64,000 nucleotides of DNA, from contig NC_090419.1 in the NCBI RefSeq assembly GCF_036365525.1, forward strand, positions 930,001 to 994,000. Direction: 5' to 3'. Shown one piece after another: positions 2 to 59,962 of the stretch. The position numbers and the translations under genes are program-made. Every line of letters begins with the position of its first letter. The first letter of the stretch is position 1. This stretch comes from Heterodontus francisci. Lineage: Eukaryota. The notes under the pieces are model-generated. The model searched no databases. It was given only the letters and a program-made list of their open reading frames with translations, and was not told where the DNA came from.

Positions 2-625
2 CAGAAGCTCAAAAGTAAATATTGCAGCGTGAGAGCGGCGTCTGTGGTTCTGGGAACAGTGACCGTGCTGAGCTTTTTAAAGAATATTCCGTGGTATTTT
101 ATGATAACAGCTCGGTATTGGCTGGTGAACAGACCCTGGTTTTGTGAGGTCAAAATGGATGCTGTAGAATCTTGGACCTGGTTAACAATCGAGTTCCTCT
201 ATCACATTGTAACCCCAGGGGTCCCATTTGTGGTGATTCTGCTGCTCAATGCTTTTACCATCAGGCACATTGTTGTGAGCAGCAGAGGACGCAGGAGACT
301 GCGGGCTCCCAGCAGTGGGGGCAGTCACAGAGACCCAGAGATGGAAAGCCGAAGGAAATCTATAATTTTACTGTCAGTTATCTCGGCCAATTTCATCCTG
401 CTATGGGCAGCGTTTATGGTGAATTCCATTTGGAACCGAATGCGGTATATGGTGCATGTGTCTGTCATTCTACCTGGTTATCTGCTGGAAGCGGGCTTCA
501 TGCTGCAGCTCCTGAGTTGCTGCACAAATACTGCGATTTATGCCGTGACCCAAACCCAGTTCAGAGTGCAGCTGAAGAATTCGCTGAAATATCCCTTTAC
601 TTCAATTGTTAAATTCATTCAATGA
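2..625 (+). CDS. GPR139-like class A GPCR, copy A: 3' part of exon 2 (ICL2-TM4 to C-terminus); 5' part lies before the window
   Basis: Open frame from base 2 (QKLKSKYCSVRAASVVLG) to TGA 623-625; aligns along its length with copies B and D (PWFC, TPGVPF, RRKSIILL, FILLWA, GFMLQLLSCCTNTAIY, TQTQFR). Confidence 0.85.
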   Translation, partial: QKLKSKYCSVRAASVVLGTVTVLSFLKNIPWYFMITARYWLVNRPWFCEVKMDAVESWTWLTIEFLYHIVTPGVPFVVILLLNAFTIRHIVVSSRGRRRLRAPSSGGSHRDPEMESRRKSIILLSVISANFILLWAAFMVNSIWNRMRYMVHVSVILPGYLLEAGFMLQLLSCCTNTAIYAVTQTQFRVQLKNSLKYPFTSIVKFIQ

Positions 626-659
626 TGGCAGGAAAGGAATCGCAAACTATTTACAGCAG

Positions 660-1060
660 TTGGGGCCGGGTCCTGTCGCTATTGTAAGAAAGCGGGTCGG
701 AGACCGTCGTTCAGACGACAGAGCGGGGCCGGGTACTGCTCCCAATCATGACAGAGCGGGGGTGGGGGCTACCAGTTTGGTGCGTGATGCTTTGTAGAAA
801 TAGATGGGTTGGCGCCTGTGGTGGTAGAGTGGGGCAAAGCCTGTCGCTACAGAGAAAGAGCAGATGCGGGGTCTGTCGCTGTGTTGACAGAGTGGGCCCT
901 GGACCTGACCCGATGATGAAAGAGCGGGGGCTATGTCTGTGGTTATGGTGACAGATCGGGGCGGGGTCTGTTGCCATGGTGACCTAGCGGGATGGGACCT
1001 ATGCTTAAGGAGAGTTGGTGACAGCGGGGCCTGTTCCCCATGGTGACATCGCGACCTCTG
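660..1060 (+). repeat. Degenerate GC-rich ~33-35 bp tandem array 3' of copy A
   Basis: Recurring GACAGAGCGGGG and CCATGGTGAC units. Confidence 0.6.
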
Positions 1061-1316
1061 CCAAGACATCCGAAAGTTCTGCAACAGCTCTCAGTCGTTC
1101 GACCACAGGGAAAGCGTCAGCAGCGGTCCCGCCCACCGGAGGTCGCCAACGCAACCAGGACAACAGCAGCAGAAGAGAAAGTGGTGGGATGGATTACCCT
1201 CCATTCTTCATAATCTGTGAACACACATTATGATGCTTGCTGTAGAGCTTTGTTAAAAAGAAATAACGCTTTCCAGTACATTCTAACACTTTATACCACT
1301 TTGACACCCTATATAT

Positions 1317-1700
1317 GGGGGAGATGGCAGGTTAGTGGTAATTTCACCGAGTAAGTAATCCAGAGATTTAGGCTAATGTCCTGGCTTCGAATCCCACCAG
1401 GACAGCTGGTGGAATTTAAATTCAATTAATGAAGAACAAACTGGTATTAAAAGCTAGTCTCAGTATTGGTGCCATAAAACGATCCTCAATTTTCATAAAA
1501 ACCCATCCAGTTCACTAATCTCCTTCAGGGAAGGAAATCTGCTGTCCAAACCTGGACTGACCGACGCGTGACTCCAGACCCACAGCAATGTGGTTGACTC
1601 TAAACAGCCCTTTGAAATGGTCTAGCGAGCCATTCACTTCAACAGCAATTAGGTTTGGGAAACAAATGCTGGCCTTGCCAGCGATGACAGAATAAAAAAA
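1317..1700 (+). mobile_element. tRNA-headed SINE whose 3' tail matches the 29-32 kb LINE family
   Basis: A-box-like TGGCAGGTTAGTGG and B-box-like TTCGAATCCC; ends AAATGCTGGCCTTGCCAGCGA..AATAAAAAAA like the LINE ends at 44094 and 48760. Confidence 0.7.
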
Positions 1701-1987
1701 ACTTTCTAATCCTAATTTATTATTTAGAAACCTTTATAACCCTTCATAATTCGTTAGAAACTTTATAATACATTAGAAACCTTCACAACACGTTAAATAA
1801 ATATGCGGAGCCCTTTTTATTCCTTTACGATCCCTCGTGATCTTTTATAAACCGTTATAACATTTTCTAATACTTATTAGCACTTTCTAATCCTTTATAA
1901 ATATACAGAATTTAACCCCTTGTCACACTTCTTATTCTGTACACCCCTCGACAAGATCTTACAATGCTTCAAATGCCTCTCTAACCC

Positions 1988-3700
1988 TTATAGAGTCATA
2001 GAGATACACAGCACAGAAACAGACCCTTCGGCCCATCGTGTTCGTACCAGCCATCGAGCACCTAACAATTCGAATCCCATTTTCCAGCACTTGGCCCATA
2101 GCCTCGTATGCCATGGCGTTTCAAGTTCTCATCTAAATACTTCTTCAATGTTGTGATATTTTTGCCACCACCACCACTTCAAGCAGAGCATTCCAGATTC
2201 CAGCCACCCTCTGGGGGCAGAAAATCCTCAAATTCCCTCTAAACCTGCTGCACATTACCTTAAATCTATGCCCCCTGTTTATTGACCCCACCGCTAAGGG
2301 AAAAAGTTTCTTCCTACCTAACCTGTCAATGCCCCTCATAATTTTGTATGCCGCAATCATATCGCAGCTCAGCCTTCTCTGCTCTAAGGGACACAAACCA
2401 AGCCTTTCAGTCTATCTTCAGAGCTGAAATGCTCCAGCCCAGGCAACATCCTGGTGAATCTCCTCTGCACCCTCTCCAGTGCAATCACATCCTTCCTACA
2501 GTGTGGTTGCCAACGCTGTACACAGTACTCCAGCTGTGGCCTAACTAGCGTTTTATACAGCTCCATCATAACCTCCCTGCTCTTATATTCTATGACTCGG
2601 CTAATAAAGGCCAGTATCCCATATGCCTTCCGAATCACCTTATCTACCTGTGCTGCTGCCTTCAGTGATCTATCGACAAGTAGACCAAGGTCCCTCTGAC
2701 CCTCTGTACTTCCTAAGGTCCTACCATCTATTTATTCCCTTATATTCCCTTACCTTGTTAGTCCTCACATAATGCATCCCTCACACTTCTCAGGATTAAG
2801 TTCCATTTGCCACAGCTCCGCCCATCTTACCAGCCCATCTATTTCGTCCTGTAATCTAAGGCTTTCCTCCTTACTATTTACAACACCACCAATTATCGTG
2901 TTATCTGCGAACTTAATGATCATAACTCCTATATTCACGTCTAAATCATTAATGTACACTACAAACAGCAAGTGTTCCTGCACCGATCTCTGTGGTACAC
3001 CATTTGTCACAGGCTTCCACTCGCAAAAACAGCCCTCGACCATTACCCTCTGCTCCTGCCACTAAGCCAATCTAGGACCCAATCTGCCAAATTGCCCTGG
3101 ATCTCATGGGCTCTTACCTTCTTAACCAATCTCCAGTGCGGGACCTTATCAAAAGCCTAACTGAAGGCCATGTAGACGACATAAACTGCCTTACCCTCAT
3201 CTACACATCTCGCCATCGCCTCAGAAAATTCAATCATGTTAGTTAGACATGATCTCTCCCTGACAAAGCCATGCTGACTATCCCTGATTAATCCTGCCTC
3301 TCCAAGTGGAGAGTAATCCTGGTTCTATGAGTTTTTTCCAATAGTTTCCCAACAACTGATGATAAACTCACCGGCCTTTAATTACCTGATTTATCCCTAC
3401 TGCCCTTCTTGAGTAATGGTACCACATTCACTGTCGTCCAATCCTCTTGTACCTCTCCTGTGGCCAGAGAGGATTAGAAAATTTGTGTCAGAGCCCGTGC
3501 AAACGCTTCCCTTGCCTCACATAACAGCCTGGGATACAACTCATCTGGGCCTTGGGATTTATCCACTTTTGAGCCGCTAAAACAGCTAATGCTTCCTCCC
3601 TTTCAATGCGAATCTGTTCAATTGTGTCACAATCCGCCTCACTGATCTCAACACCCACATGATCCCTCGTTCTCCATAGTGAACATTGATGAAGAGTAAT
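1988..3700 (-). mobile_element. CR1 LINE, 5'-truncated, decayed RT
   Basis: GVPQ, YINDL, KFADN, LVRPQLEYCVQ, LERVQRRFTRMLPG motifs across frameshifted ORFs. Confidence 0.9.
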
Positions 3701-3821
3701 CATTTAAAACATTTATGATATTTTATAATAATTTATAACGCTTTATACTTCTTTATATCAGTTTATAATCTTTCATAATGCTTTATAATCCTTTATATTC
3801 CTTGTAAAGCTGTGCCGCGTA

Positions 3822-4183
3822 GGGCGGCACAGTGGCCCAGTGGTTAGCACCGCAGCCTCACAGCTCCAGGGACCCGGGTTCGATTCCGGGTACTGCCTGT
3901 GTGGAGTTTGCAAGTTCTCCCTGTGTCTGCGTGGGTTTCCTCCGGGTGCTCCGGTTTCCTCCCACAAGCCAAAAAAAGACTTGCAGGTTGATAGGTAAAT
4001 TGGTCATTATAAATTGTCACTAGTATAGGTAGGTGGTAGGGAAATATAGGGACAGGTGGGGATGTTTGGTAGGAATATGGGATTAGTGTAGGATTAGTAT
4101 AAATGGGTGGTTGATGTTCGGCACAGACTCGGTGGGCCGAAGGGCCTGTTTCAGTGCTGTATCTCTAATCTAATCTAATCTAA
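3822..4183 (+). mobile_element. HE1-type (V-SINE) tRNA SINE
   Basis: tRNA head (TGGCCCAGTGG, GGTTCGATTCC), V-domain GCGTGGGTTTCCTCCGGGTGCTCCGGTTTCCTCCCACA, CR1-like tail GGGCCGAAGGGCCTGTTTCAGTGCTGTATCTC(TAATC)n. Confidence 0.9.
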
Positions 4184-4854
4184 TAACATTTTTATGAACG
4201 TTTCTAACCAATTACTACCCCTTATATTCCTTTACAACGTTTTAATAATCCTTTTTTTAAGCTTTATAATCATTTATAAACTTTAATGAGCCTTCATAAT
4301 TATTATAACATTGTTAGTATTTCCCAATCCTTTTTGAGGTATTCTAATCCTTTGTAACCCTGGAAATCAATTTGAATCATTTTAATAATTGTAACCCTTT
4401 ATAAAAGTTAACAATGCTTTGCAATTCTTTATAATCCTTTATCACCTTTTATTTGGAGATAGGAATGGGACACTGAATATGAAAATCTGCACAGATTTGG
4501 AGTCCAGATGTGAAACATATAGAGGAAGGAAATGAGGCTGTGCAAGAAATGTGTACAGCCTCTGTGCTCCAGATTCTAGATATATAAACGTAGTGAGCTG
4601 GGAGGGAGGCTGAGCAGGGAAAGTGTGCAGCTCTGGACACCAGATAATAAAAATGTAGAGAAATAGAGGAAGGCTGGGTCAGGACTGTGCACTGTTCTGG
4701 ACTCCAGATACTAGATATAAAGAGGAATGCTCGATAAGGAGTCCAACTCTAGAACTTGAACACAAAAATCAAGGCTTTCACTCCATTACAATACTGAGTG
4801 AGCACACTGAATGAGGGCCAGAATTGAGGGAGTGGTGCACTATCAGAGTCATAT

Positions 4855-7800
4855 GGCTAACAATGTTTGAAAATGACAAGCAATGTTAAATAGACAAATC
4901 TAAAGGCATCTTGTCTTAATGCGCAGAGCATTTGCAATAAGGTAGATGAATTAACAGCAAAAGTAGAGATAAACGGTTATGATATAGCAGCGATTATGGA
5001 GACATAGCTGCAAGGTGACCAAGGATGGGAACTGAACATCCTGGGGTATTCAATATTTAGCAAGGACAGTGTAAAAAGGGAAAGGATGTGGGGTTTCGTT
5101 GTTAGTACAGGATAAAATCAATGCTATAGTGAGGAAGTATATTGAAGAAAATCATGATGTGAAATCTGTCTGGGTGCAGCTAAGAAACAACAAGGGGCAG
5201 AAAACGTTGATGGTGGTGGTTTGTAGGCCCTCAAACAGTAGTGGAGATGTAAGGGATGGCATTAAACAGGAAATTAGAGATGCATCCATTAAGCATACAC
5301 CGGTAATCATGGGTGACATTAATCTACATATAGATCGGTCAAACCAAATTAGCTATAATCGTGCGGAGATGGATTCCCTTGAGTGTGTACATGACCGTTT
5401 TTTTAAAAGAAAAATACGTTTAGGAACCAACTAGAGATCATATTATCCTAGACGAGGTATCGTGCATAGAGAAATGAATAATTAACTATCTTGTTGTGCG
5501 GCGTCCCATGGGGAGGAGCGAGCATAACATTATTGAATTCTTCACTAAGATGGAGATTGAAGTAGTTGAATCCAAAACCAGGGTCCTGACTCTAAATAAA
5601 GGAAACTACGAAGGTATGAGGCGCGAGTTGGCTATTATAGATTGGCAAACTTTACCAAAAGAGTTGAAGGTGGGTAGGCAACGGATAGTTAAAGAACAAA
5701 GAACAAGGAGCAAAGAGCAAAGAGCAACAAACAGTACAGCACAGGAACAGGCCATTCGGCCATCCAAGCCTGCGCCGATCTTGATGCCTGCCTAAACTAA
5801 AACCTTCTGCACTTCCTGGGACCTCTATTCCCATTCTGCTCATGTATTTGTCAAGATGCCTCTTAAATGTCGCCATCGTACCTGCTTCCACCACCTCGCC
5901 CGGCAGCAAGTTCTAGGCACTCACAACCCTCAGTGTCAAGAACTTGCCTCGCACATCCTTTCTAAAGTTTGCCCCTCGCACCTTAAACCTATGTCTCTTA
6001 GTAACTGACTCTTCCACCCTGGGAAAAAGCTTCTGACTGTTCACACTGTCCATGCTGCTCATAACTTTGTAAACCTCTATCATGTCGCCCCAACACCTCC
6101 GTCGTTCCAGTGGAAACAATCAACCTCTCCTCATAGCTAATGCCCTCCAGACCAGGCAACATCCTGGTTAACCTCTTCTGTACCCACTCCAAAGCCTCCA
6201 CGTCCTTCTGGTAGTGTGGCGACCAGAATTGCACTCAATATTCTAAGTGTGGCCCAACTAAAGTTCTGTACAGCTGCAGCATGTCTTGCCAATTATTGTA
6301 CTCTAATGCCCCGACCAATGAAGGCAAGCATGCCGTATGCCTTCTCGACTACCTTATCCACCTGCGTTGCCACTTTCAGTGACCTGTGGACCTGTACGCC
6401 CAGATCTCTCTGCCTGTCAATATGTCTAACGGTTCTGCCATTTACTGTATACTTCCCACCTGCATTCGACCTTCCAAAATGCATTACCTCACATTTGTCC
6501 AGATTAAAATCCATCTACCATTTCTCCACCCAAGTCTCCAAACGATCTATATCCTGCTGTATCCTCTGACAATCCACATCACTATCGGCAACTCCACCAA
6601 CCTCTGTGTCGTCTCCAAACTTACTAATCAGACCAGCTACATTTTCCTCCAAATCATTTATATATACAACAAACAGCAAAGGTGCCAGCACTGATCCCTG
6701 CGGAAGACCACTATTCACAGCCCTCCAATCAGAAAAGCACCCTTTCACTGCTACCCTCTGTCTTCTGTGACTGAGCCAGTTCGGTATTCATCTTGCCAGC
6801 TCACCTCTGATCGCGTGTGACTTCACCATTTGTACCAGTCTGCCATGAGGGACCTTGTCAAAGGCTTTACTAAAGTCCATATAGATAACATCCACTGTCC
6901 TTCCTTCATCAATCATCTTTGTCACTTCCTCAAAAGACTCAATCAAGTTAGTGAGACACGACCTCCCCTTCACAAAACCATGCTGCCTCTCACTAATAAG
7001 TTCGTTGTTTCCAAATGGGAGTAAATCATGTCCCGAAGAATCCTTTCTAATAATTTCCCTACCATTGACGGAAGGCTCACCGGTATATAATTTCCTGGAT
7101 TATCCTTGTTACCCTTCTTAAATAAAGGAAAAACATTGGCTATTCTCCAGTCCTCTGGCACCTCACCTGTAGCCAATGACGATGCCAAGATTTCTGTCCA
7201 GGCCCCAATTATTTCTTCCCTTGCCTCCCTCAGTATTCTGGGGTGGATCCCATCAGGCCCTGGGGACATATCTACTTTAATGCTTTGCAAGACACCCGAC
7301 ACCTCCTCCTTTTTGATAATGAGATGACTGAGACTATCTACACTCCCTTCCCAAGGCTCATCATCCACCAAGTCCTTCTCTTTGTTGAAATCTGATGCAA
7401 AGTACTCATTTAGTACCTCGCCCATTTTCTCTGGCTTCTCACATAGATTCCCTTCTCTGTCCTTGAATGGGCCAACCCTTTCCCTAGTTACCCTCTTGCT
7501 CTTTATATACGTATAAAAAGCCTTGGGAATTTCCTTAATCATGTTTGCCAATGACTTTTGATGACCCCTTTTAGCCCTCCTGACTCCTTGCTTAAGTTCC
7601 TTCCTACTGTCTTTATATTCCTCAAGGGGCTCGTCGGTTCCTAGCCTTCCAGCCCTTACGAATGCTACCTTTTTCTTTTTGACTCGGCTCACAATATCCC
7701 GCGTTATCCAAGGTTCCCAAAACTTGCCAGACTTATCCTTCTTCCTCACAGGAACTTGCTGGTCCTGGATTCTAATCAGCTGACGTTTGAAAGACTCCCA

Positions 7801-10800
7801 CATGTCAAACAGCCGCCCCCAATCTAAATTCCTCAGTTCCTGCCTAATATTGTTATAATTAGCCTTCCCCCAATTTAGCACCTTCACCCGAGGACTACTC
7901 TTATCCACAAGTACCTTAAAACTTATGGCATTATGGTCACTGTTCCCTAAATGCTCCACTACTGAAACTTCGACCACCTGGCCGGGCTCAATCCCCAATA
8001 TCAGGTCCTGTACGGCCCAATCCCTAGTTGGACTGTCTACATATTGTTTCAAGAAGCCCTGCAAGATGCTCCTTTCAATTTCTGCGCCATCCAAGCCCCT
8101 AGTACTAAGTGAGTCCAGTCAATATAAGGGAAGTTAAAGTCACCCACCACGACAACCCTGATACCTTTACATCTTTCCAAAATATGGGTACATATCTGCT
8201 CCTCTACCTCCTGCTGGCTGTTAGGAGGCCTGTAGAAAATCCCAACATTGTGACTGCACCCTTCCTATTCCTGAGCTCCACCCATATTGCCTCGCTGCAC
8301 GACCCCTTCGAGGTGTACAGTACAGCTGTGATATTCTCCTTAACAAGTAATTCAACTACCCCACCCCTTTTACATCCCCCTCTATCCCGCCTAAAGCTTC
8401 TAAATCCTGGAACATTTAGCTGCCAATCCTGTCCTTCCCTCAACCAAGCCTCTGTAATAGCAACAACATCATAATTCAAGGAACTAATCCAAGCTCTGAG
8501 TTCATCTGCCTTACCTGCAGCACTTCTTGCATTGAAACAAATGCACTTCAGACGACCAGTCCCGCAGTGCTCCGCAACATCTCCCTGCCTGCTCTTTCTC
8601 TTAGTCTTACTGGCCTTATTTACTAGTTCCCCTTCATTTATTTCACTTGCTGTCCTAATGCTCTGATTCCCACCCCCTGCCACACTAATTTAAACTCTCC
8701 CAAGTGACGCTAGAAAGCCTCGCAGCCAGGATATTTGTGTCCCTCCAGTTTAGATGCAACCCGTCCTTCTTGTACAGGTCCCATCTTTCCCTGAAGAGAT
8801 CCCAGTGGTCCAGTTATCTGAAACCCTCCCTTCTACACCAGCTTTTCAGCCACGTGTTTAACAGCACTAACTTCCTATTTCTCACCTCACTGGCATGCAC
8901 ACGTGAACGTGTGAATGAATTACAACAATTATTCATTCCTGTCTGGCGCAAAAAGAAAACCAGAAAGATGGCTCAACCATGGCTTCCAAAATAAATTACT
9001 GATAGTATAATATCCAGAGAGGAGCCATATAAAATTGCCAGAACAAACAGTAAGTCTGAGGATTGGTAGCAAATTAGAGTTTGGCAAATGAGAACAAAGA
9101 GTTTGATTACGTGGGGCGAAATAGAGTTTGAGAGCAAACATGTGGGGAACATAAAAACTGACTGTAAAAGCTTCTATTAATATATGAAGAGAAAAAAGAT
9201 TAGTGAAGACAAATGTGGGTCCCTTACAGTCAGAAACGAGGAAACTATAATGGGGAACAAAGAAATGGCATAACAATTAAACTCATAATTTGGTTCAGTC
9301 TTAACAAAGCAGGATACAAATGACCTTCCGGAAATGTTAGGGAATCAGAGGTCAAATAAGTGGGAGGATATGAAGGAAATAAAATGAGTAAAAAAAAAGT
9401 GCTGGGGAAATTAATGGGGTTAAAGGCTGACAAATGCCCAGGGTCCGATAAGCTACATCCCAGAGTATGAAAGGAAGTGGCCCTAGAAATAGTGGATGCA
9501 TTGGTAGTCATCTTCCAAAATTATATAGACTCTGGAGCAGTCCCTACCGATTGGAGGTTGACAAATGTTACCCCACTATTTCAAAAGGACGGAGCAAAAA
9601 GTAGGGAAATATAGTCCCGTAATTCTTACATCTGTAGTAGAGAAAATGCTAGAGTCTGTTACTGAGGTAGTGATAGCAGAACACCTAGAATGTATGAACG
9701 GGATTGGGCAAAATCAGTATGGGTTTGCGAAAAGCAAGTCATGATTAACAAATCTACTGGAGATTTTGAGGCGGTAAGTAGTAGAATGTATAAGGGAGAA
9801 CCAGTAAATGTGGTGTATTTGGATTTTCAGAAAGCTTTTGATCAGGTTCCACATAAAAGGCTAGTGTGAAAGATTAAAGCACATAGGATTGGGGTAATAT
9901 ACCAGCATGGATTGAGAATTGCTTGACAGACAGGAGACAGAGATTAGGAATAAATGGGTCTCTTCCAGGGTGGCAGGTAGTGACAAGTGGTGTACCGCAG
10001 GGATCAGTGCTTGGGCCCCAGCTGTGCACAATATATATTAATGACTGGCGGCTGGGGCTGGGGTTCTGAGCTGTGGATGCAGCGGAGGATGCAAACAGGC
10101 TCCAATGTGACTTGGGCAAGTTGGGTGAGTGGGCAAATGTATGGATGATACAGTGTTACGTGGATAAATGTGCGTTTATCCACTTTGGTTGTAAAAGCAG
10201 AAAGGCAGATTATTATCTGTATGGTGATAGATTGGGAAAGGGGGAGGTACAACGATAACTGGGAGTCCTTGTACACCAGTCGCTGAAAGCAAGCATTCAG
10301 GTCAGCAAGCAATTAGGAAGGCCAATGGTATGTCGGCCTTCTTTGCAAGAGGATTTGGGTACAGGAGCAAGAATGTCTTACTGCCGTTGCAGAGGGCCTT
10401 GGTGAGACGATATCTGGAGTATTTGTGCAGGTCTGGTCTACTTATATTAGGAAGGATGTTCTTGTCTTGGAGGGAGTGCAAAAAAGATTTACTAGGCTGA
10501 TTCCTGGGACGGCAGGATTGACGTAAATTGAGAGATTGGGTCGACTAGGCCTATATTCACTAGAGCTTAGAAGAGAGGGGATCTCATAGAAACCAATTTA
10601 ATTCTCACAGGACGAGACAGGCTTGATGCAGGGAGAGTGTTCCCGATGGCTTGGGAGTCCAGAACCAGGGGTCACAGTCTCAGGATACGGATATGCCATT
10701 TGGAACCAATATGAGGAGAACTTTCTTCACTCAGAGAGTGGTGAACCTGTGGAATTCTCTACTGCAGTAGGCAGTCGAGACCAAGTCAGTAAATATATTC

Positions 10801-10960: not shown

Positions 10961-10964
10961 TACA

Positions 10965-11300: not shown

Positions 11301-11314
11301 TTCATCTCACTTCA

Positions 11315-11470
11315 GATGGCTGCAGGAAATATCACGTAAACTGGCCACAGCAAAATTTCTCTCAGAATGGCTGCAACAAATATAATTTATAATGGCCACT
11401 GTGCATAACAGATAAAATGACCTCAGCGCACAACACTGAAAATGGCCACAGGAAATATATCTTGAAATCA
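11315..11470 (+). repeat. Degenerate 25-bp tandem array (AAAATGGCYRCAGCAAATATCACTT), left part
   Basis: ATGGC cores spaced ~25 bp. Confidence 0.6.
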
Positions 11471-27149: not shown

Positions 27150-27260
27150 CCGGATTGAAAGGGGTTAACTGCACCTCTTTGTTCAGTGACTAACTAATGT
27201 CAGTCCTCATGGACCGTAATTGTGTCACTGGAGGGTTTCTGATTTCTATTAATAAATGCC
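27150..27260 (+). promoter_or_regulatory. Conserved upstream block of copy B (putative promoter)
   Basis: TTGAAAGGGGTTAACT..TTTGTTCAGTGAC..TAATTGTGTCACTGG..TATTAATAAA shared with copies C and D. Confidence 0.55.
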
Positions 27261-27375
27261 TGCTTTCAATGACATAGGTTATAGTTGTGAGTTGGCAGTA
27301 ACAGTTATCAGCGGCTTCAGAGACGGGGAGAGGATAAATCACAAACTGGGGACAATAGATTGGAATATTACAACA

Positions 27376-27556
27376 ATGGATCAGGATCAGAGAACAATAG
27401 ACTGGAATGTTACAACAATGGAAAGGAGTTTCTCCTCGGAGCTTCAACAACTTTATACCCATTATCATCAAATGCAATTAGAATGGCGGATATATTACGC
27501 ACTTAAGATTATTCAATACATTTACTATCCCATCCTCGCTATTGTTGGCATCCCTG
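27376..27556 (+). CDS. GPR139-like GPCR copy B, exon 1 (N-terminus and start of TM1); start codon uncertain (in-frame ATGs at 27256, 27376, 27418)
   Basis: Encodes ...IIQYIYYPILAIVGIP; canonical phase-1 donor CCTG|GTAAGT (GT 27557-27558); homologous to exon 1 of copies C and D. Confidence 0.8.
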
Positions 27557-34330: not shown

Positions 34331-35226
34331 TTAACTTGGTGACGATTGTGATCCTGTCTCGGGGAAAGTGTGGTCTCTCCAAATGTGTCACTCGCTACTT
34401 GGTGGCCATGGCAGCGGCAGATCTCCTGGTAGTGATCCTTGACCTGATATTGAGGCACATTCCCATTGTTTATTACGAACAGTTTCATTTCTTGCAGTAT
34501 TCCATCCCCACGTGTAATATCCATGCCGTCCTGCTGTTTGCAGCAACAGATTTTTCTGTCTGGTTCACCGTTACTTTCACATTTGATCGATTTGTCGCCA
34601 TTTGTTGCCAGAAGCTGAAAAGTAAATATTGCACCGAGAAAATGGCAGCTGTCGTTCTGGGGACTTTGACTGTGCTGAGCTGTTTAAAGAACATGTTCTG
34701 GTATTTTATGTTCACAGGACAGTATGTTCTGGTGAACACCCCTTGGTTTTGTTTGGTAACAATGGAGGTTCTATATTCTCGAGTCTGGTCAACAATCGAA
34801 TTCCTACATTACACTCTAACTCCGGGGTTCCCATTTTTGCTGATTCTGCTGCTTAACGTCCTCACTATCAAACACATTTTAGTGAGTAGCAGAAGTCGTC
34901 AGAGACTCCGGGCTCACAGCAGTGCGGGCAGTCGCAAAGACCAAGAAATGGAGAGCCGACGGAAATCCATCGTTTTGCTGTTAGTTATCTCAGCCAATTT
35001 CATACTGTTATGGGCAGTGTTTACGGTCGTTTCAATAGGGAACCGAATGTGGTATTTGGTGTCTCTATACCTACCAGAATTTTTACAGGATATAGGTTTC
35101 ATGTTGCAGCTCCTCAGCTGCTCCACCAACACTGCGGTTTATGCCATGACCCAGACTCAGTTCAGAAAGCAGTTGAAGAATGTGCTGAAATATCCCTTTA
35201 ATAGAATTATTAAATCCAATCAATGA
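34331..35226 (+). CDS. GPR139-like GPCR copy B, exon 2 (TM1-TM7); spliced protein ~358 aa from ATG 27376
   Basis: Acceptor TTCCTCACAG|TT (AG 34329-34330) joins in frame to give GIPVNLVTIVILSRGKCGL; motifs LVAMAAADL, FTFDRFVAIC, ECL2 Cys, NTAVY; no stops until TGA 35224-35226. Confidence 0.9.
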
Positions 35227-44093: not shown

Positions 44094-44695
44094 CTTTTTT
44101 TATTCATTCATGGGATGTGGGTGTCACTGGCTGGGCCAGCATTTATTGCCCATCCCTAATTGCCCTTGAGAAGGTGGTGGTGAGCTGCCTTCTTGAACCG
44201 CTGCAGTCCATGTGGGGTAGGTACACCCACAGTGCTGTTAGAAAGGGAGTTCCAGGATTTTCACCTAGCGACAGTGAAGGAACTGCGATTTAGTTCCAAG
44301 CCAAGATGGTGTGTGACTTGTAGGGGAACTTGCAGGTGGTGGTACCCCCATGCATTTGCTGCCCTCGTCCTTCTAGTTGGTGGAGGTCACGTGTTTGGAA
44401 AGTGTTGTCTAAGGAACCTTGGCGCACTGCTGCAGCGCATCTTGCAGATGGTACACACTGCTGCCACTGTTTGTCGGTGGTGGAGGGAGTGAATGTTTGT
44501 AGCTGGGGTTCCAATCAAGTGGGATGCTTTGTCTTGGATGGTGTCGAGCTTTCTGAGTGTTGTTGGAGCTGCACCCGTCCAGGCAAGTGGAGAATATTCC
44601 ATCACACTCCTAACTTGTGCCTTGTAGATGGTGGACAGGCTTTGGGGAGTCAGGAGGTGAGTTACCTGCCGCAGGACTGGGAGCCTCTGACCTGC
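44094..44695 (-). mobile_element. 3' end of CR1/L2-clade LINE abutting exon 2 of copy C
   Basis: MEYSPLAWTGAAPTTLRKLDTIQDKA; tail CCCATGAATGAATAAAAAAA. Confidence 0.85.
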
Positions 44696-45008
44696 ACTAT
44701 TCTCTCAGTACAATATTTTCTCTTCAGTTTCTGGCAAGAAATGGCTACAAAACGATCAAAGGTGAAAGTGACAGTGGCCCAGACAGAACAGTCAGTAATG
44801 GCATAAAGCAAGACGGCGTGGATATTACACACACGGATGTAATTCATGAAATGAAAATGTTCCCGATAAACAATTGGAATGTGCCTTAATATCAGGTCGA
44901 GGAAAACAACCAGTAAATCCATCACTGCCATGGTCACCAGGTAGCGAGTGACACATTTGGAAAGACCACACTTTCCTCGATACAGGATCACAATCGTCAT
45001 CAAGTTAG
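44696..45008 (-). pseudogene. GPR139-like GPCR copy C, exon 2 fragment (TM1-TM3 only), cut off by a LINE 3' end
   Basis: Acceptor CCTCACAG|CT; NLMTIVILYRGKCGLSKCVTRYL...FTFDRFVAISCQKLKRKYCTE, then LINE sequence; I found no TM4-TM7 beyond the insertion. Confidence 0.8.
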
Positions 45009-50665: not shown

Positions 50666-50867
50666 TAGGGACACCGATGATAGCAAGGATGGGATAGTAA
50701 CTGTACTGAATCATTTTCAGTCCGAAATAGATCCGTCGATCTAATGATCGCCGATCATCATCTTCAGTAAATAGGTGAAACCAAACCAATATATTCCTGA
50801 CTACTGTTGTTCCATTCCAATCTATGGTTCTCAGCTTCTGATCCATCATTGTAACATTCCAATCCAT
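50666..50867 (-). pseudogene. GPR139-like GPCR copy C, exon 1 (intact frame)
   Basis: MDWNVTMMDQKLRTIDWNGTT...IQYSYYPILAIIGVP, followed by donor CCTA|GTAAG on the minus strand (GT = plus 50665-50664). Confidence 0.75.
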
Positions 50868-50959
50868 TGTTTTGAAATTCCAGTCTATCCTCTCCCTCTC
50901 TCTGGAGCCGCAATCCCCGTTAGTGCTAGAGGTGATGTTCACGCTGACACATTGAAATA

Positions 50960-51070
50960 AGTCCCTTACTAATAGAAGTGGGAAATCCTCCAGTGACACA
51001 ATGACTTGCCCGCAGAGATTGACATTAATTCCAGTCACTGAACAAACAGGTTTAGTTAACCCCTTTCAAT
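50960..51070 (-). promoter_or_regulatory. Conserved upstream block of copy C (putative promoter)
   Basis: Same motif order as upstream of copy B, on the minus strand. Confidence 0.5.
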
Positions 51071-51099
51071 TCAAAACCTTTTCTTTAATTTTATTAAGT

Positions 51100-53125
51100 C
51101 GAACTTTTATGCAATATGCTTGGGATGTATGAAGGTTGCTGAGGGAAAGAATGGTGGAAATTGCAGTGACACTGTGATAATCTTTCAATCACCTTTTGGC
51201 AATGGAAGAGGTGCCAGAAGGCAGTGATTTACCAATGTTAAACCCTTTTTAGAAAAAAAACTGTATTAGGTAAACCCCATAACAAGGATAAATGGGTCTT
51301 TTTCTGAATGGCATGCAGTGACTGGTGGGGTACTGCAAGGATCGGTGCTGGGACCCTAGCTATTCACAATATGCAAAAATGATTTAGATCCAGGAACTAA
51401 ATGTAATATCTCCAAATTTGCAGATGACACAAAACTGAGTGGGAGGGTGAGTTGTGAGGAGGATGCAGAGAGGCTTCAGGATGATTTGGACAAGTTGAGT
51501 GAGTGGTCTGATGCGTGGTAGATGCAGTATAATGTGGATAAATGTGAGGTTATCCACTTTGGTAGCAAAAACAAGAAGGCAGATTATTACCTGAATGGCT
51601 ATAAACTGAGAGAGGGGAATACACAACGAGATCTGGGTGTTATCATACACAGTCGCTGAAGGTAAGCATGCAGGTGCAACAGGTGGTAAAAAAGGCAAAT
51701 AGTATGCTGGCCTTCATAGCGAGATGATTCAAGTACAGGAGCAGGGATCACTTGCTGCAGCTACACAGCGCCTTGGTGAGGCCACATCTGGAATATTGTG
51801 GGCAGTTTGCGTATCCTTATCTGAGGAATGATGTTCTTGCTATAGAGGGAGTGCAGCAAAGTTTTACCAGACTGATTCCTGGGATGGCGGGAGTGACGTA
51901 TGAGGAGATATTGAGTCGGTTCGGATTATATTCGCTGGAGCTCAGAAGAGTGAGAGGGGATCTCATAGCAACTTATAAAATTCTAGAAGGGGGGATTTCA
52001 GATATCTGGAGCATTGGGATCGCGTCAGGGACAGATGGGACCTGTACAAGACGGACGGGTTGCTTCTAAACTGGAGGGGCACAAATATCCTGGCTGCGAG
52101 GTTTGCTAGCGTCACTCGGGAGGGTTTCAACTCATGTGGCAGGAGGGTGTGAACCAGAGCAGGTAAATAAGGCCAGTAAGACTAAGAGGAAAAGCAGGCA
52201 TGGGGATGTTGCGGGCTGGTGGGCTGAAGTGAATTTGTTTCAATGCGAGAAGCATAACAGGTAAGGCAGGTGAACTTAGAGCTTGGATCAGTACTTGGAA
52301 CTATGAAGTCGTTTCTATTTCAGAGACTCGGTTGCGAGAAGGACAGGATTGGCAGCTAAATATTCAAGGATTTAGAATCATCAGGCGGGATACAGGGGGA
52401 TGTAAAAGGAGTGGGGGAGTTGCATTACTTGTTAAGGAGAGTATCACAGCTGTACTGCAGGTGGACACCTCGGAGGCGTCGTGCAGCGAGGCAATATGGG
52501 TGGAGCTCAGGAATAGGAAGGGTGCAGTCACGATGTTGGGGGTTTTCTACAGTCCTCCCAACAGCCAGCGGGAGGTCGACAGATATTTGAACAGAATTTG
52601 GAAAGATGTAAAGGTGAGTAATTTTAACTTCCCCTATATTGACTGGGACTCACTTAGTGCTGGGGGCTTGGATGGGGCAGGATCTGTATGGAGCATCCAG
52701 GAGGGCTTCTTGAAACAATATGTAGATAATCCAACGAGGGATGGGGCCGTACTAGACCTGGTATTGGGGAATGAGCCCAGCCAGGTGGTCGACTTTCAAT
52801 AGGGGAGCATTTCGGGAACAGTGACCATAATTCCATAAGTTTTAAGGTACTTGTGGATAAGGGTAAGAGTAGTCCTTGGGTGAAGGTGCTAAATTGGGGG
52901 AAGGCTAATTATAATAATATTAGGCAGGAACTGAGGAATTTAGATTGGGGGCGGCTGTTTGAGGGTAAATCAACATCTGACATGTGGGAGTCTTTCAAAC
53001 ATCAGATATATTGAATCCAGGACCAGCACGTTCCTGTGAGGAAGAAGGATAAGTTTGACAAGTTTCAGGAACCTTGGATAACACGGGATATTGTGAGCCT
53101 AGTCAAAAGGAAAAAGGAGGCATTC
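51100..53125 (+). mobile_element. Two fused CR1 fragments (RT 51100-51985; ORF1 end plus EN 51985-53125)
   Basis: KFADDTKL, ALVRPHLEY; GQDWQLNIQGF, EAIWVELRNRKG. Confidence 0.8.
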
Positions 53126-53127
53126 TA

Positions 53128-53232
53128 AATATCCCGCAGGAACAGACTCCCATCGAAATACATCCCCAGGAACAGACTCCCATCGAAATAACCCCCCGGG
53201 AGCAGACTCCCAACTGAATACCGCCCCGGGGA
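53128..53232 (+). repeat. 30-bp tandem repeat, ~3.5 copies
   Basis: AAATA..CCCCAGGAACAGACTCCCATCG units. Confidence 0.8.
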
Positions 53233-53239
53233 TGACCAT

Positions 53240-54010
53240 CCCTCCATCGTAAGATCAGAATTAGTGATGTTGACTGATGATTTCAGTTTTCCACACTATT
53301 CACAACTCCTTAGATACTAAAGCAGCCCATGTCCAGATGCAACAAGAATTGGACAACATCCAGGCTTGAGTGAATTCGAACCACACAATTGCCAGGCAAT
53401 GACCATCTCAAACAAGAGAGAATCTAACCCCTTGAAGTTCACTGGCATTACCATCACTGAATTCCACACTATCAACATCCTGGTCTTACCATTAATCAGA
53501 AACTGACCTGACGAACCACAAAAATGCCAAAGCAGGTCAGAGGTGGGGAATCTTGCAGTGAATAACTCAACTCATGATTCCTCAATGCCTGTCCATCATC
53601 TACAAGGCACAAATCAGGAGTGTGATGGAATACACTGCACGAGCCTGGATGAGAGCAGATCCAACAACACACAAGAAACTCGGCACCACCCAGGACAAAG
53701 CAGCCCTTTTGACTGGAAGCCCACTTACCACCTGCAACATTCACTCTGTTCACTACTGATGTACAGTGGCAACAGTCTGTACCATCGACAAGTAGCATTG
53801 CAGAAACTCATCAAGGCTCCTTAGGCAACAGCTTCCACCTAAAAGGGCAAGGGCAGAACATGTTTCCCTTCAAGCCACACACCATTCTGACTTGGAACGA
53901 TATCACTGTTCCTTCACTGCCGCTGGGTGAAATTCCTGGAACGCCCTTCCTAACACGTGTACCTGAACACCAGCACTTCAGCAGGCCAAGAAGGCCACTC
54001 ACGGGTCACG
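53240..54010 (+). mobile_element. CR1/L2-clade LINE 3' part
   Basis: IYKAQIRSVMEY, KKLGTTQDKAA. Confidence 0.75.
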
Positions 54011-54034
54011 GATGAATAAAATAAGCTGTTGAGT

Positions 54035-54315
54035 AGGGTTTTAAAGTGTTATGAATTTAATTGAGTGTTATAAAAGATGATAAAGAGTACAATGTTTGCA
54101 GTCGATTATAAAAACAATACCAAAGTTCATGAAAGATTACTAAGTGTCATATCTTGTTATAAACGTGTTTATATTATTATGAAGGATGATAAAGTTGATG
54201 AAGTTTCAAAGGATTATAAGGTGTTATAAAGGATGATGAATGGTTACCGAGCATCACAAATATTATAACATTCTATTAAAAACTATAATCAATCAGAAAA
54301 AAATGGTTATAAAGG
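54035..54315 (-). repeat. 10-bp-periodic AT-rich array 3' of copy D
   Basis: Repeating TTATAAAGGA-like units on plus. Confidence 0.6.
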
Positions 54316-54519
54316 AGTACAAAGAATCCAGGCTCAGTCTTCACACCATCTTCGGTCTTCTTGGTTTTGTTGTTCTTTATGTTGCTATCCTGGTCAGGAT
54401 GGAGATCACCAATGGACAGGGCTGCTGGTGGTGCTTTTCCCTTATGCTTTCCACTGCATCATTGGCTGTGCATGGTGGGCGAGGCTGGAGAACCTCAGGC
54501 GCTGCCACCGTCCATTGTG

Positions 54520-55260
54520 CCATTGCCATGTGGAACAGCCTCTGCTACCAATTCACAGTCACCATAGGGAACAGACCCCACCCAATCCCAGTCACAATGA
54601 TGAAGAGACCCTGCTCCCACACATCCGCTGTGATGTGCAACAGGCACCGCCCATAATCTCCTGTCAACATGGGGACCAGGCACCGACTCTCTCTTCATTG
54701 AGCAGGGCAACAGGCCTCGGCAAATCCCAGTCACCACGGGGAACTCCGCAAAGCTTCATTCCCCCGGCCACCATGGGTAACAGGTCCCCTCCCCACTCAA
54801 TTTCCACCATGGGAAAGAAGCCCTACCACCACACCCCACCCACTAATAGAACAGGCTCTGCCGCCACTCCATCATAACCATGCCGAGCAGGCCTCACCGC
54901 TCCCCCCCTCCCCCCGCCCTCCCCCGGCTGTATCCATGGAGAATGGACCCTGCTACAAGTCCCTCATCACTATAGCGACTTCCCACAGCTCCCAATTATC
55001 CGTTACACTGGGGAACAGGCGCTGCCCACCCTGAGACGTCACCATGGGGGACAGGCCAAACTGCTTCTTCAACAAGGTGAACAGGGCACTCCCAGCACTC
55101 TCATCATAGAGAGACAAACCGCAACTGCTCCATCACCTTGGTGGAAGAACATGACCCTGCTCTGTCACCAAAGTAACGGGCCCCACCCCTAGCTCTGGCA
55201 CTACAGCGGTTGCCTCCACCCTCGATCTGGCACCATGGCAGCAGACTCTGGCAATGGTTG
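54520..55260 (-). repeat. Degenerate GC-rich ~35 bp tandem array 3' of copy D
   Basis: Recurring TCACCATGGGGAACAGG-like units on plus, the reverse complement of the copy B array. Confidence 0.7.
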
Positions 55261-55320
55261 GTGGAAGTGTGAAAGAAAATGACAAGCTGCTGGAAATAAC
55301 CAGTCATTTCTTTATTTAAT

Positions 55321-56210
55321 TCATAGAACAATTTGAGAAAAGGGATATGTCAGCACATTCTTCAACTGCTCTCTGAACTGAGTCTGGGTCAGTGCATAAA
55401 TCGTTGTGTTTGTGCAGCAACTCAGGAGCTGCAGCATGAAACCCAATTGTATCAGAGAAACAGGTACTGATGGAGCCGCCGGCTCCAAATCCTGTATTCT
55501 TTGCCACATCGTATTCACCATTAACACAGCCCATAAGAGTATGAAATTGGCCGAGATAACGAGCAGCAAAATTATGGATTTCCTTCGATTCTCCAGCTCT
55601 GGGTCTCTGCGACACTCCCTACTGCTGTGGGCTCGGAGTCTCCTGCGACCTCTGCTGCTCACAAAAATGTGTCGGATGGTGAAAGCATTGAGCAGCAGAA
55701 TCACCACAAATGGGACACAAGGGGTTAGAATGTGATGGAGGAGCTCGATTGTTGCCCAGACATGAGAGAAATAAACATACATATTTGCATAACAAAACCA
55801 GGGTCTGTTCGCCTTCGAGTACCAACCTGTCAACATAAAATACCAGAAAATGTTCTTTAAGCAGCTCAGCACATTCACAGTTCCCAGAACCACAGCCGCC
55901 GTTTTCTCGGTGCAATATTTAATTTTCAGCTTCTGGCAGCAAATGGCCACAAATCGATCAAAGGTGAAGGTGACCGTAAACCAAACAGAGCAGTCTGTAG
56001 CTGCATGAAGCAGGACAGCGTGGATATTACACATGCGTACGGTCAACAGGAATTGAAACTGTCTTGGATAAACAATGGGAATGTGCCTCAATATAAGGTC
56101 GAGGATAATGACGAGTAGATCCACCGCTGCCATGGCCACTAAGTAGCGAGTGACACATTTGGAGAGACCGCACTTTCCCCGAGACAGGATCACAATTGTC
56201 ATCAAGTTAA
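55321..56210 (-). CDS. GPR139-like GPCR copy D, exon 2; spliced protein ~384 aa from ATG 59962
   Basis: Acceptor TTCCTCACAG|TT (plus 56212-56211); intact 7TM frame with DRF, PWFC, NTTIY; stop at 55321-55323. Confidence 0.9.
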
Positions 56211-57004
56211 CTGTGAGGAAGTGCAACAAACCAAGAAATTATACATCAGGCTGCTCGCAAAGTTAACATTTTTGACTGAATACATATCGAGAGTTACAGA
56301 TGTGTTCCTGTGCCCAATGATGCATTTAAATGGGTATAAGTAAAAAAAAAAACTGAATGGTTCTTATTGGCTGGAAGGCGGAAGAGATTAAATTGGAAAG
56401 GGGTTATGCTGAACTGAAATTGCTGAACTCAGTATTGATCAAAATCCTGCAATCCCTCCTTTCCCATGCCGAGTTTAAAAGCAGTCCAAGTTCCAGCGAA
56501 TTTCACTGATCTAAAACACATTTTCCTGTTTCTTTCTCCACAGATGCTGCCAGCCCTGTCGAGTCGTTTCATCATTTTCTGTTATTATTCCAGATTTGTG
56601 GCTTCTGCAGCAATCTTGTACATAAAGTTAAATGTTGGACTGACTGAGAGATTCCTTCAACAGTGACAGGCAGCATATAATTCACTTATTCCAAAACAAT
56701 TATTGGACATGAGTCCACTAAAAAAAAAATCAAAGAAACAATTAATCCGAATTGTCGCTAAATTAACTGTAAACTGGGGAGTAAAAATAACAGTTGAAAG
56801 GAGTTTAGTATGACATTTGAGCATCAGTGATCACTGTCAGTGGCGGACCTTCTTTAGTTCCTGTGACAGAGCGGTCTGTTGGAGATAGGGTTTAAATGAA
56901 ATAATCCTGATTTGTTTAGGAAATAGAGTTAAAATATGGATTGAATGTGGAATCAGGAATGGATTAATGGGAAATAAAATAGCAGTATTAAATTAAACAT
57001 AAAC

Positions 57005-57600
57005 ACGATCGATGCTGGGACCCCTGCTGCTTGTACTGCACATTAATGTTTTAGATGTGAATATAGGAGGTATGATCAATAATTTCAAAGATGACACGAA
57101 TATTGGTGGTGTCATAAATAATGAGGAGGAAAGCCTTAGATTGCAGGACGATATAAATGGGCTGGTAAGATGGGCAGAGCAGTGGAAAATGTAATTTAAT
57201 CCTGAGAAGTGTGAGGTGATGCAACTTGGGGGAACAAAAAAGACAATGGAATATACAATGGGTGGTAGGACCCTCGGAAGTACAGAGGGTCAGGGGGACC
57301 TTGGTGTACTTGTCCATAGATCACTGAAGGCAGCAGCATAGGTAGATAAGGTGGTTAGGAAGGCATATGGGATAATTGCTGAGGCATAGAATATAAGAGC
57401 AGGGAGGTTATGATGGAGCTGTCTAAAACACGAGATAAGCCACAGCTGGAGTACTGTGTACAGTTCTGGGCACCACACTATCGGAAGGATGTGACTGCAC
57501 TGGAGTGGGAGCAGAGGAGATTCACCAGGATGTTGCCTGGGCTGGAGCATTTCAGCTGTGAAGAGAGACTGGATAGGCTAGAGTTGTTGTCCTTAGAGCT
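57005..57600 (+). mobile_element. CR1 RT fragment in intron of copy D
   Basis: LGPLL..FKDDT, PQLEYCVQFWAPHY. Confidence 0.85.
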
Positions 57601-58059
57601 ACTTCACGATAAAACATCCACAATGTATTAACCATTGAACTCAAGCTTGTCTTGTAACGTATTGCTGCCAAAACAATAAAACAATTAATGACTTCAAAAG
57701 GAAATTGGTTGGCCACTTGAAGGAAATAGACCTGCAGGGCTATAGGAATTGAATGGGGCAGTGGGGACAGACTGATTAGCTCTGTGGAGAGCCGGCATGG
57801 AGTCGATGGGCCGACAACTCTGCTTTTGTGCAGTAAAATATACTATCACTCAATGACAGCATAGCATTCTCCCTCGATAAGCAACATTCTGGTTCGCTCT
57901 GGAGATGCAAAGATGGTGAGAATGGCTGACTGCCTCAGATTGAAGCTGCTGTCGCTACTGCCAGGATAGTGAACCTTCAGCAACTTTCAGCAACGTTTGC
58001 ACAGTCACAAATCAAGTGCACATTAATCGAAAAGAGTTGTTCATTTCCTTTACCACTCC

Positions 58060-58560
58060 TCTTTGACATTGGATTCCGCAGAGCCACATGAACCATCTGG
58101 AACTCCACTGCTTTCGCAAAACCATGGGATCTCTTATCCTGTATTCTCTGTGAGGGAGAAAACGATGTTTTCTTTTCACCTGGCCTGGATGCCCTCTGTC
58201 ATCTCCCGAATGCATCCATGTACACACATTGGGATGTGTTGGATATGTTGCTCCCCCACCGCCTGGAAAGTTGTCTATGCAGAGAATGGTCTTATCTGCC
58301 ACTGACAGCTCTGTCTTGGCTTTGGTGTGAGACTCCAGACTATGTTGATGGAGGCTGCACATCTCTGTGACCACCTCCTTGTTGAATCGGAGTTACCACG
58401 TGTACAAATCTTGCATTAGGTGTTGGTAGGAAACGTGCTCTTGAAAATCTCGGGTTGTCCAGCGCAGATTCCGCCAATGCCTTCCTCTTCGCAGAGCTTT
58501 CCTTTTCTGCAGCTTCTGCTCCATTTCTTGTCGATCAATATGCGCTGTTAATGCAGTCTC
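58060..58560 (-). mobile_element. PIF/Harbinger (HARBI1-like) transposase remnant
   Basis: Minus-strand LRFNKEVVTEMCSL..TELSVADK and GFAKAVEFQMVHVALRNP resemble Harbinger DDE transposase N-terminal motifs (from recall). Confidence 0.55.
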
Positions 58561-59697
58561 CATATTTCATCCAGAGTTGGGTGAACACTTCCTCAGCCCT
58601 CCCTAATTGTATGCAGCAGTTCACAAACTCAACCTCCAGAAAACAATCTGCAGCACCTTAAATAACTTGGCATTAGCAGAGGGAATTCAATAGCTCCTCA
58701 CCTTTCAGGGCATTTAAGTGGTCATTGGATAGACATATGGATGAAAATGGAATAGTGTAGGACAGATGGTTTCACAGGTCGGCGCAACATCGAGGGCTGA
58801 AGGGCCTGTACTGCGCTGCAATGTTCTAATTCTAATTCGTATTAGCATGGATGCCTGGAACATGCAGAGACAGACCAAATTTCAAAGAAGTGCGTCAAGG
58901 TTGTTGGAGGACCCTGCCCAACACGGATAACCACACGGGATATGCCAGGTGTGGCTGGCAGCTTGTCCTGCACCATATTGTGTTTTATAATCTTTGCAGC
59001 ACCAGCAAAATAGATTCATCCTTCTGTGAAGCCCAGAATCATGGCCATGGAGAGATACAGATGAAAAGAAGTAATCTTTCAAAAGACATTTGCGATAAAT
59101 ACTGAAAAGGAACAACTCACAGGGATATGGGAAATGGACAGAGGTTTTAGGAGTAATAGGAGGGGCGAGGACATGGAGGGGTTCAAACACAAGGATGGGA
59201 ATAGGAAAATTGAGGTGCTGCTAGACCAGGAACCAATGCATTTCGCTGAGAACATGTGGATGGGTGCATGTTGTTTGGTGTGATTTAGTATTAGTGACTT
59301 GAATCTCCTGTGGTGTAAGAGAGGTTGTACCTGTGAATCTCACCAGTATAGTTTTGGAATAGGCGAATCTGGATTTAAGAAAAGCAATGATAAGGGTTTA
59401 TACAACGGATGGGCTGAGGTAGATTGCGATATTTTGCAGGTGGTAGGATTCAGTATTGATAGCGGCGATAATATGTGATTTGAAGTCAGCTGAGGATCAA
59501 AATGATTGCCCAGGTTGCAAACAGTTGCTCCAGCCTCAGATATTGTCAAGTGAGGGGGATTGAGTCTTTGGTTAGCATGTTGACTTTGTACCAGGAATCA
59601 AAGAAATGGCTTCCATTTCCTCAATATTTAAACAACAAAGATTTGTAATAGAATGAATCATGGTTTATAGATATAATAACTGGACTGAGAGACTTAC

Positions 59698-59962
59698 CAG
59701 GGACACCAATTATAGCAAGGATGGGATAGTAAATGTGTTGAATAATCACAAGTGCATATTTGATCCGGAATTCTAATGTTAGCCAATGATAATATGCAGA
59801 AAGAAAATAAAACAAATAGGTTATACTTCTGCTCATTGCTGCCGTATTCCAATCTTCCATTCTCAGATTCTGATCAACTGTTGTAACTTTCCAGACTTCT
59901 GATCCCAGATTCGGGTCCATTGTTGTCGCATTCCAGTCCATTGTTCCCAGATCCTGGCCCAT
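59698..59962 (-). CDS. GPR139-like GPCR copy D, exon 1; start uncertain (in-frame ATGs at 60082, 59962 and downstream)
   Basis: MGQDLGTMDWNATTM...IIQHIYYPILAIIGVP; donor CCTG|GTAAGT on the minus strand (GT = plus 59697-59696). Confidence 0.8.

Follow-up and report, generated by a model that had tools for sequence, protein, structure and literature searches.

Thousands of receptor genes with a diversified outer face in elasmobranchs: a candidate chemosensory repertoire related to GPR139

What is a tandem group of receptor genes doing in a shark genome, and how far does its family extend? We analyzed a stretch of 64,000 nucleotides of Heterodontus francisci (contig NC_090419.1, positions 930,001 to 994,000; hereafter the window). 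Six-frame translation and tblastn located in it four paralogous G-protein-coupled receptors (GPCRs) of class A, genes A, B, C, and D: three intact two-exon genes and one truncated by a long interspersed nuclear element (LINE). These are the four paralogues in ~60 kb of the original prediction, which had described them as a tandem cluster. Rather than a small local group, they are part of a genome-wide elasmobranch family of thousands of copies, in which the side facing the outside of the cell is diversified by positive selection. We consider it very probable that the family is a ligand-recognition repertoire of some kind. Judged from its sequences, a chemosensory repertoire is the explanation toward which we lean.

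Exon 2 of genes A, B, and D matched Pfam 7tm_1 above the Pfam cut-off (E 3e-9 to 1e-17). The conserved columns of the family likewise fit class A (rhodopsin-like) GPCRs, with the hallmarks N1.50, D2.50, the D-R-aromatic motif at transmembrane helix (TM) 3, and the cysteine pair between C3.25 and the second extracellular loop (ECL2). The genes and their parts lie in the window as follows.

1..625 (2-625 by tblastn), forward strand: gene A exon 2, 3' part, from the second intracellular loop (ICL2) to the stop, intact
27160..27235, forward strand: conserved upstream element of gene B, GGGGTTAACT...TGTTCAGTGACT...TGTGTCACTGG, preceding exon 1
27256..27556, forward strand: gene B exon 1, N-terminus and outer half of TM1, with a phase-1 GT donor
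34331..35226, forward strand: gene B exon 2, intact, spanning N1.50 through TM7 plus helix 8
44184..44704, reverse strand: LINE reverse-transcriptase-like sequence at the gene C break, its class read from the translation and not from a library scan
44689..45008, reverse strand: gene C exon 2 fragment, TM1 to the start of TM4, pseudogene
50666..50867, reverse strand: gene C exon 1, GT donor and open frame retained
50987..51064, reverse strand: conserved upstream element of gene C
55321..56210, reverse strand: gene D exon 2, intact
59698..59962, reverse strand: gene D exon 1
60115..60192, reverse strand: conserved upstream element of gene D

Gene A crosses the window edge: its exon 2 starts ~290 bases to the left, and its exon 1 lies ~22 kb upstream, at G000:C49:about 907,000-907,163. 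Spliced gene B comprises 398 codons counted from the first in-frame ATG, and spliced gene D comprises 384. The element upstream of gene B exon 1 is a putative promoter; for the upstream element, a CTCF-like interpretation was weighed by eye and dropped. One copy had been called dead, and this is gene C, whose exon 2 is broken off at the start of TM4, where the LINE sequence begins; tblastn found no 3' part of this gene within the window. Identity among the intact genes A, B, and D was 80-83% for inside-facing residues and 37-57% for the extracellular loops. All nine extracellular-loop strings quoted in the original prediction agree with the translations. The motifs that it had called almost invariant are so, apart from small exceptions in three genes: ILYRG..VTMA and AISCQ in gene C, FTIDRF and RAPSS in gene A, and SSRSRQR and RRKSIVLL in gene B.

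The size of the family was then estimated across the 6.0 Gb of the genome searched. A protein search returned 13,068 first-look candidates, and the 132 that were scored were each at least 76% identical. A 23-nt motif of exon 2 (TM3/ICL2) had 3,996 exact occurrences, which rose to 7,164 when up to two mismatches were allowed, and a degenerate pattern spanning the exon 1 end and its donor was found 8,604 times; reversed controls gave 0 for each motif and pattern. Intactness was read in 80 of 100 listed exact-motif places (4 on C4, 14 on C17, 1 on C9, and 1 on C21 were dropped), a sample that represents the first scaffolds in order, was chosen by an intact motif, and concerns the openness of exon 2 only. 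Exon 2 was open in 61 of these 80 copies (Wilson interval 66-84%), where the frameshifted L038 and L041 were excluded from the open count and L060, absent from the alignment, was counted as open. It was also open in 10/12 places chosen by a second motif. Open exon-2 copies may therefore number from a floor of ~3,000 (3,996 x 0.76) to an upper-middle figure of ~5,500 (7,164 x 0.77). As 47 of 66 copies not chosen by the motif fall within two mismatches of it, the exon-2 loci can be put at ~10,000 as a rough estimate. The predicted birth-and-death expansion is thus seen as thousands of loci, about one-quarter of them broken; only a few copies genome-wide would have counted against it. Grouping of 116 sampled proteins, with four loci left out, gave 107, 85, 62, and 41 clusters at 99, 95, 90, and 80% identity. 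On G000:C21, a 90-Mb scaffold, family matches were listed from 5 kb to 83 Mb, so that one chromosome-scale scaffold is filled with family genes. Two further family loci lie 15-30 kb to the right of the window: a member of another subfamily that is intact (L095:4842-5753), and a fragment (L097:842-1252).

The ratio of nonsynonymous to synonymous substitution rates (dN/dS) was estimated by our own GY94 likelihood code (not PAML) on IQ-TREE trees with branch proportions fixed. The 8 codons of the search motif were masked, and site posteriors were naive empirical Bayes. Regions were set by motif anchors and checked against the helices in the AlphaFold model of P0006, which has a predicted local distance difference test score of 87, seven long helices, and helix 8. 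Among 76 copies, dN/dS was 0.31 in the inner TM segments, 0.41 in the intracellular loops plus helix 8, 0.74 in the outer TM segments, and 0.83 in the extracellular loops. The likelihood-ratio test (LRT) of M8 against M8a gave 159, with 22/130 selected sites on the outer side and 0/151 on the inner. The window subfamily (31 copies) showed a dN/dS of 1.83 (1.51-2.22) in the extracellular loops and 0.36 inside, an LRT of 500, and selected sites at 19/131 outer versus 0/151 inner positions. A replicate with 39 other copies gave an LRT of 106 (13/130 versus 0/149 sites), and 62 copies below 90% identity gave 172 (18/130 versus 0/149); in both of these sets the extracellular-loop dN/dS averaged 0.74. 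A tree-free comparison of the 94 youngest paralogue pairs (88-98% identical; the pairs are non-independent) yielded a dN of 0.165 and a dS of 0.037 in the extracellular loops, corresponding to a dN/dS of 4.4; inside, dN/dS was 0.57 in these pairs versus 0.33 in older pairs.

Every positively selected site is located on the outside or within the ligand pocket. Among the selected positions are 3.29, 3.33, 5.43, 6.55, 6.58, 7.35, and 7.39, as well as residues after the ECL2 cysteine; 3.33, 5.43, and 7.39 (7x38) are residues required by GPR139 agonists (PMC5430874). The ligand surface is therefore diversified as originally predicted, by positive selection on the outer side only, and dN/dS in the outer loops was elevated over the background.

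Exon 2 was matched by 2,218 protein clusters at 90%, and the 120 listed were all from sharks. The representatives looked up came from catsharks, bamboo and zebra sharks, a houndshark, a stingray, and skates, so that the family extends across elasmobranchs, within the chondrichthyan range once proposed. Two orphan clades are related to it. Clade A contains one gene per amphibian species and a sturgeon gene, and is ~70% identical across amphibians; clade B is found in coelacanth, sharks, teleosts, amphibians, and reptiles, with no mammal or bird among 120 listed of 145 matches. In a maximum-likelihood tree of 28 proteins, the elasmobranch family formed one clade (95/83) that was sister to clade A (96/95), clade B was sister to both (100/99), and shark GPR139 fell outside. 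A quick tree of 59 proteins agreed. The GPR139 motif occurs once in the shark genome, at G000:C24:51.02 Mb. Because a GPR139 of its own is retained in the shark and the trees separate the two, the family is not the GPR139 orthologue. An expansion of GPR139 proper, as first proposed, was rejected by the approximately unbiased test of the family and GPR139 as one clade (p 0.0004, with one long-branch GPR139 sequence and without GPR142 in the tree). A GPR139-type set of Trp/Phe-binding residues, F3.33, H5.43, W6.48, and N7.39, was likewise rejected: W6.48 alone is kept, and the others vary among 11-12 amino acids. The intron in TM1, in contrast, was correctly predicted to be common with GPR139: shark GPR139 (L111) and genes B, C, and D have it at the same codon, before N1.50, and in the same phase 1.

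The name GPR210A/B has been given to orphan receptors that neighbour GPR139/GPR142 and occur in coelacanth, gar, and fishes (Rinne et al. 2019, PMC6504862). By taxon pattern, without an accession match, clades A and B would correspond to these; a term search found neither "shark" nor "cartilaginous" in the main text of that paper. The clade B orphan was observed in annotations as TMEM183A isoforms in shark and frog (P0319, P0417), which suggests a conserved linkage to TMEM183A. GPR139 is related to the MIP/allatostatin-B and proctolin receptors (PMC12208981). The Atlas neighbours of the family include FMRFamide-receptor-like and Srw-bearing clusters. The same branch has supplied chemoreceptor expansions in nematodes and molluscs.

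As for expression, no sequencing run was listed for gene B, a result that is uninformative either way. Three runs (presumed RNA, tissue unlabelled) were matched to a subfamily member at 80%, and they gave 30, 59, and 22 contigs of the family. A junction of exon 1 with exon 2 was present at a loose contig end, over 30 nt in run X1 and 13 nt in run X2, and the 30-mer of the junction was absent from the genome with up to one mismatch. Thus, at least one member is spliced. A 140-nt fragment of the family (L009:1718-1857) was also observed within a very deep contig (depth 3,256 in X1 and 967 in X3). This contig was rejected as receptor expression, as only 140 nt of the family stand in other sequence; it is a receptor fragment inside another abundant transcript.

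The first exons raise a question of their own. In the window, first and second exons are one-to-one, while genome-wide the window subfamily has 4,970 first versus 1,384 second exons (~3.6 to 1), counted by patterns that recover 15/17 and 45/49 known copies. The exon-1 listing contained same-strand runs of matches without exon-2 matches, and a second subfamily also showed surplus first exons, at the following places.

G000:C21:1,038,567-1,809,423: same-strand first-exon array
C21:41,062,788-41,346,353: same-strand first-exon array
C21:18,234,734-18,343,049: same-strand first-exon array
C7:138,678,738-138,764,676: same-strand first-exon array
G000:C21:6,685,001-6,705,000 and 6,915,001-6,945,000: surplus first exons of the second subfamily

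The closest listed same-strand exon 2 was 104-132 kb downstream of three arrays. When 130 kb of C21 were read fully, 11 first exons were found, and no exon 2 was present in these 130 kb or in 20 kb of C7 read fully. ATG, frame, and donor were kept in 25/33 array exons (17/20 targeted and 8/13 contiguous). Of 18 first exons that have an exon 2 nearby, our script passed 11; by eye, 14 were open with an ATG, 2 were open without one, and 2 were broken. The first-exon dN/dS was 0.83 in arrays and 0.91 in paired exons, distinguishable neither from 1 nor from each other, and the open share of array exons was 0.76 versus a neutral expectation of 0.58 (p 0.03, rough model). Array and paired exons have the upstream element in common (29/55 aligned). 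It is conceivable from these features, though doubtful, that the arrays follow a variable-first-exon design like that of protocadherin or UGT1; alternatively, they may be decaying duplicated fragments. In the second subfamily, whose first exon has ~23 codons, 50 kb contained 5 first exons and a single exon 2, which was broken.

Further observations concern the protein part encoded by exon 1. In gene B, this exon has 21-bp repeats at 27352-27419 with N-x-T sequons within, and in gene D it has 42-bp repeats at 59864-59965. Such repeats of 7 or 14 residues with N-x-T sequons varied in copy number from 0 to 5 across 82 models. They would provide a glycosylated N-terminus of variable length, and the minisatellite might act as a seed of unequal crossing-over. 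In model m8d30333955e6, residues 20-31 form a confident N-terminal helix ahead of TM1, encoded by exon 1, and this helix could cap the pocket.

What, then, would the family be for? We found a large clustered family with birth and death and with diversifying selection on the pocket, as is characteristic of chemosensory repertoires. Under a chemosensory role, copies would arise by segmental and tandem duplication, and selection would alter the seven pocket positions named above together with the loops, such that copies would bind different ligands. The fixed inner face would make one G-protein pathway usable by all copies, and copies out of use would decay. The likeliest site would be sensory cells facing the water, in the olfactory epithelium, taste buds, or skin. 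The likeliest ligands would be peptides or amino-acid derivatives, which we favor because of the kinship with GPR139 and the MIP receptors.

Several observations weigh against this explanation. Cross-subfamily dN/dS of the extracellular loops averaged 0.74-0.83, below 1, with dS free. In addition, dS was 1.3-1.4 outside versus 0.85-0.88 inside, and gene conversion or local mutation may therefore contribute. Given the raised outer dS and possible recombination, the inside-outside contrast is surer than the site lists. Some arrays are near-uniform (97-100% identical on C5), so that loci far outnumber distinct receptors. Family contigs occurred in 3/3 of the tissue-unlabelled, presumed-RNA runs, a finding that gives no hint of expression restricted to a single sense organ, and no GPCR was among the top 50 entries for a catshark library of brain plus olfactory tissue (PMC11979771). 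So strong a selection among young copies is also consistent with a race between host and pathogen.

This last point leads to the strongest rival, which we regard as unlikely: a set of immune or barrier sensors that would recognize peptides of microbes or parasites, as the FPR and MRGPR receptors of mammals do, with expression in leukocytes, mast-like cells, or the epithelium of gut and gill. The very strong recent selection on the extracellular loops, seen in the youngest pairs and in the omega of the selection class, 6.3, is in its favor, and low-level contigs in all three runs would suit cells found in every tissue. However, neither the tree nor the PDB sequence search indicated kinship to chemoattractant receptors, and in the fold search chemokine and chemerin receptors were only generic 7TM matches, below GPR139. 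Moreover, known immune GPCR families comprise tens of genes, not thousands.

A still less probable alternative is that runaway segmental duplication in a genome rich in repeats has carried most copies along as passengers, with a small functional core and open frames that are merely young. The near-identical arrays on C5 and C17, the thousands of first exons without a second exon of their own, and the rise of the inside dN/dS in the youngest pairs are consistent with it, as is a report that in rays tandem duplication scales with genome size (10.1101/2025.06.08.657570). The gene B region itself is present three times on one scaffold, at G000:C49:964,330, 3,531,307, and 4,084,813 (L001-L003), with one copy inverted and 3,887/3,891 bases identical, which reflects either recent segmental duplication or assembly redundancy. 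Nevertheless, neutrality predicts a dN/dS of ~1 everywhere, and the youngest pairs had values far above it outside and below it inside. Open frames were also kept in copies only ~55% identical between subfamilies, and the sample of 116 proteins contained at least 41 clusters at 80%.

Finally, it is very improbable that a real but several-fold smaller family was inflated by uncollapsed haplotypes on unplaced scaffolds: although many matches lie on small scaffolds, L007 and L008, on different scaffolds, have an identical exon 2, and L003 nearly equals L001, 20/20 copies mostly from different small scaffolds differed in protein (19 clusters at 99%), large arrays also stand on the long scaffolds C5, C17, C21, C29, and C34, and haplotype doubling would at most halve the count. 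Chemosensation is thus favored over immune sensing, passive amplification, and assembly inflation.

The genes themselves are already in public annotation as "probable GPR139"; the expansion is apparently undescribed. We found no description of it in the literature searched, a scope that left most subscription papers outside. Term searches of the available parts of a catshark sensory paper (PMC11979771), a whale shark paper (PMC8455134), and the Squalomix tandem-gene survey (10.1101/2025.06.08.657570) gave no mention of the family. A public protein of Heterodontus francisci (P0001) is identical to gene B exon 2; in its model the first exon differs from 27256-27556, and the name given is "neuropeptides capa receptor-like"; other members were seen as vasopressin V2 receptor-like or uncharacterized. 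With such assorted names, the family is undercounted by name-based counts.

The novelty is an expanded receptor repertoire of unusual scale from a new lineage, an orphan lineage that remained single-copy in amphibians. Cartilaginous fishes have been described as poor in GPCRs, with a "paucity" in the whale shark (PMC8455134), and thousands of positively selected receptors overturn this view whatever their function. They have only 20-62 known olfactory receptor genes (PMC10869828), which sits oddly with their large olfactory organs (PMC10116579), and the family makes this question directly testable. An immune function, if true, would mean innate recognition by a repertoire larger than any known for GPCRs. 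A bolder proposal, which we consider improbable as a whole, would make these genes a fifth family of olfactory receptors, found only in cartilaginous fishes and, with several thousand intact genes, larger than any other receptor gene family of a vertebrate. Part of it would consist of protocadherin-like arrays of first exons, each with its own promoter, N-terminus, and top of TM1, spliced to a shared exon 2; this would bring promoter choice and combinatorial diversity to a GPCR.

Compared with known systems, the family is closest to GPR139, which was its best match in the PDB sequence search (E 1e-8) and in the fold search (7vug, 22% identity) and which has W6.48, N5.58, and the lack of P7.50 in common with it. 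However, the two are only ~22% identical, the agonist residues F3.33, H5.43, and N7.39 are variable in the family, and P6.50 is lacking in most of its copies. Clades A and B, the presumed GPR210A/B, appear as one gene per species, whereas in the shark lineage thousands of copies are under positive selection. The family resembles the OR, TAAR, V1R/ORA, V2R/OlfC, T2R, and FPR/MRGPR repertoires in its clustered birth and death, its pseudogenes, its variable pocket, and its conserved inner face. In contrast to the vertebrate chemoreceptor repertoires, it has a separate ancestry and two coding exons, and its sensory role is predicted from sequence. Its estimated intact count (~3,000 or more) exceeds the largest complete OR repertoire published, 2,399 (PMC10869828). 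The arrays resemble the variable-first-exon clusters of protocadherin, UGT1, and GCNT2 (PMC1885805) in that first exons stand in tandem on one strand ahead of a distant second exon, and each of them has an in-phase donor and a conserved element upstream. They differ in that most ligand-pocket residues of the shark family lie in exon 2, in that the splicing of distal first exons to a shared exon 2 is a proposal here, and in that many of its genes, those of the window included, are ordinary one-to-one genes.

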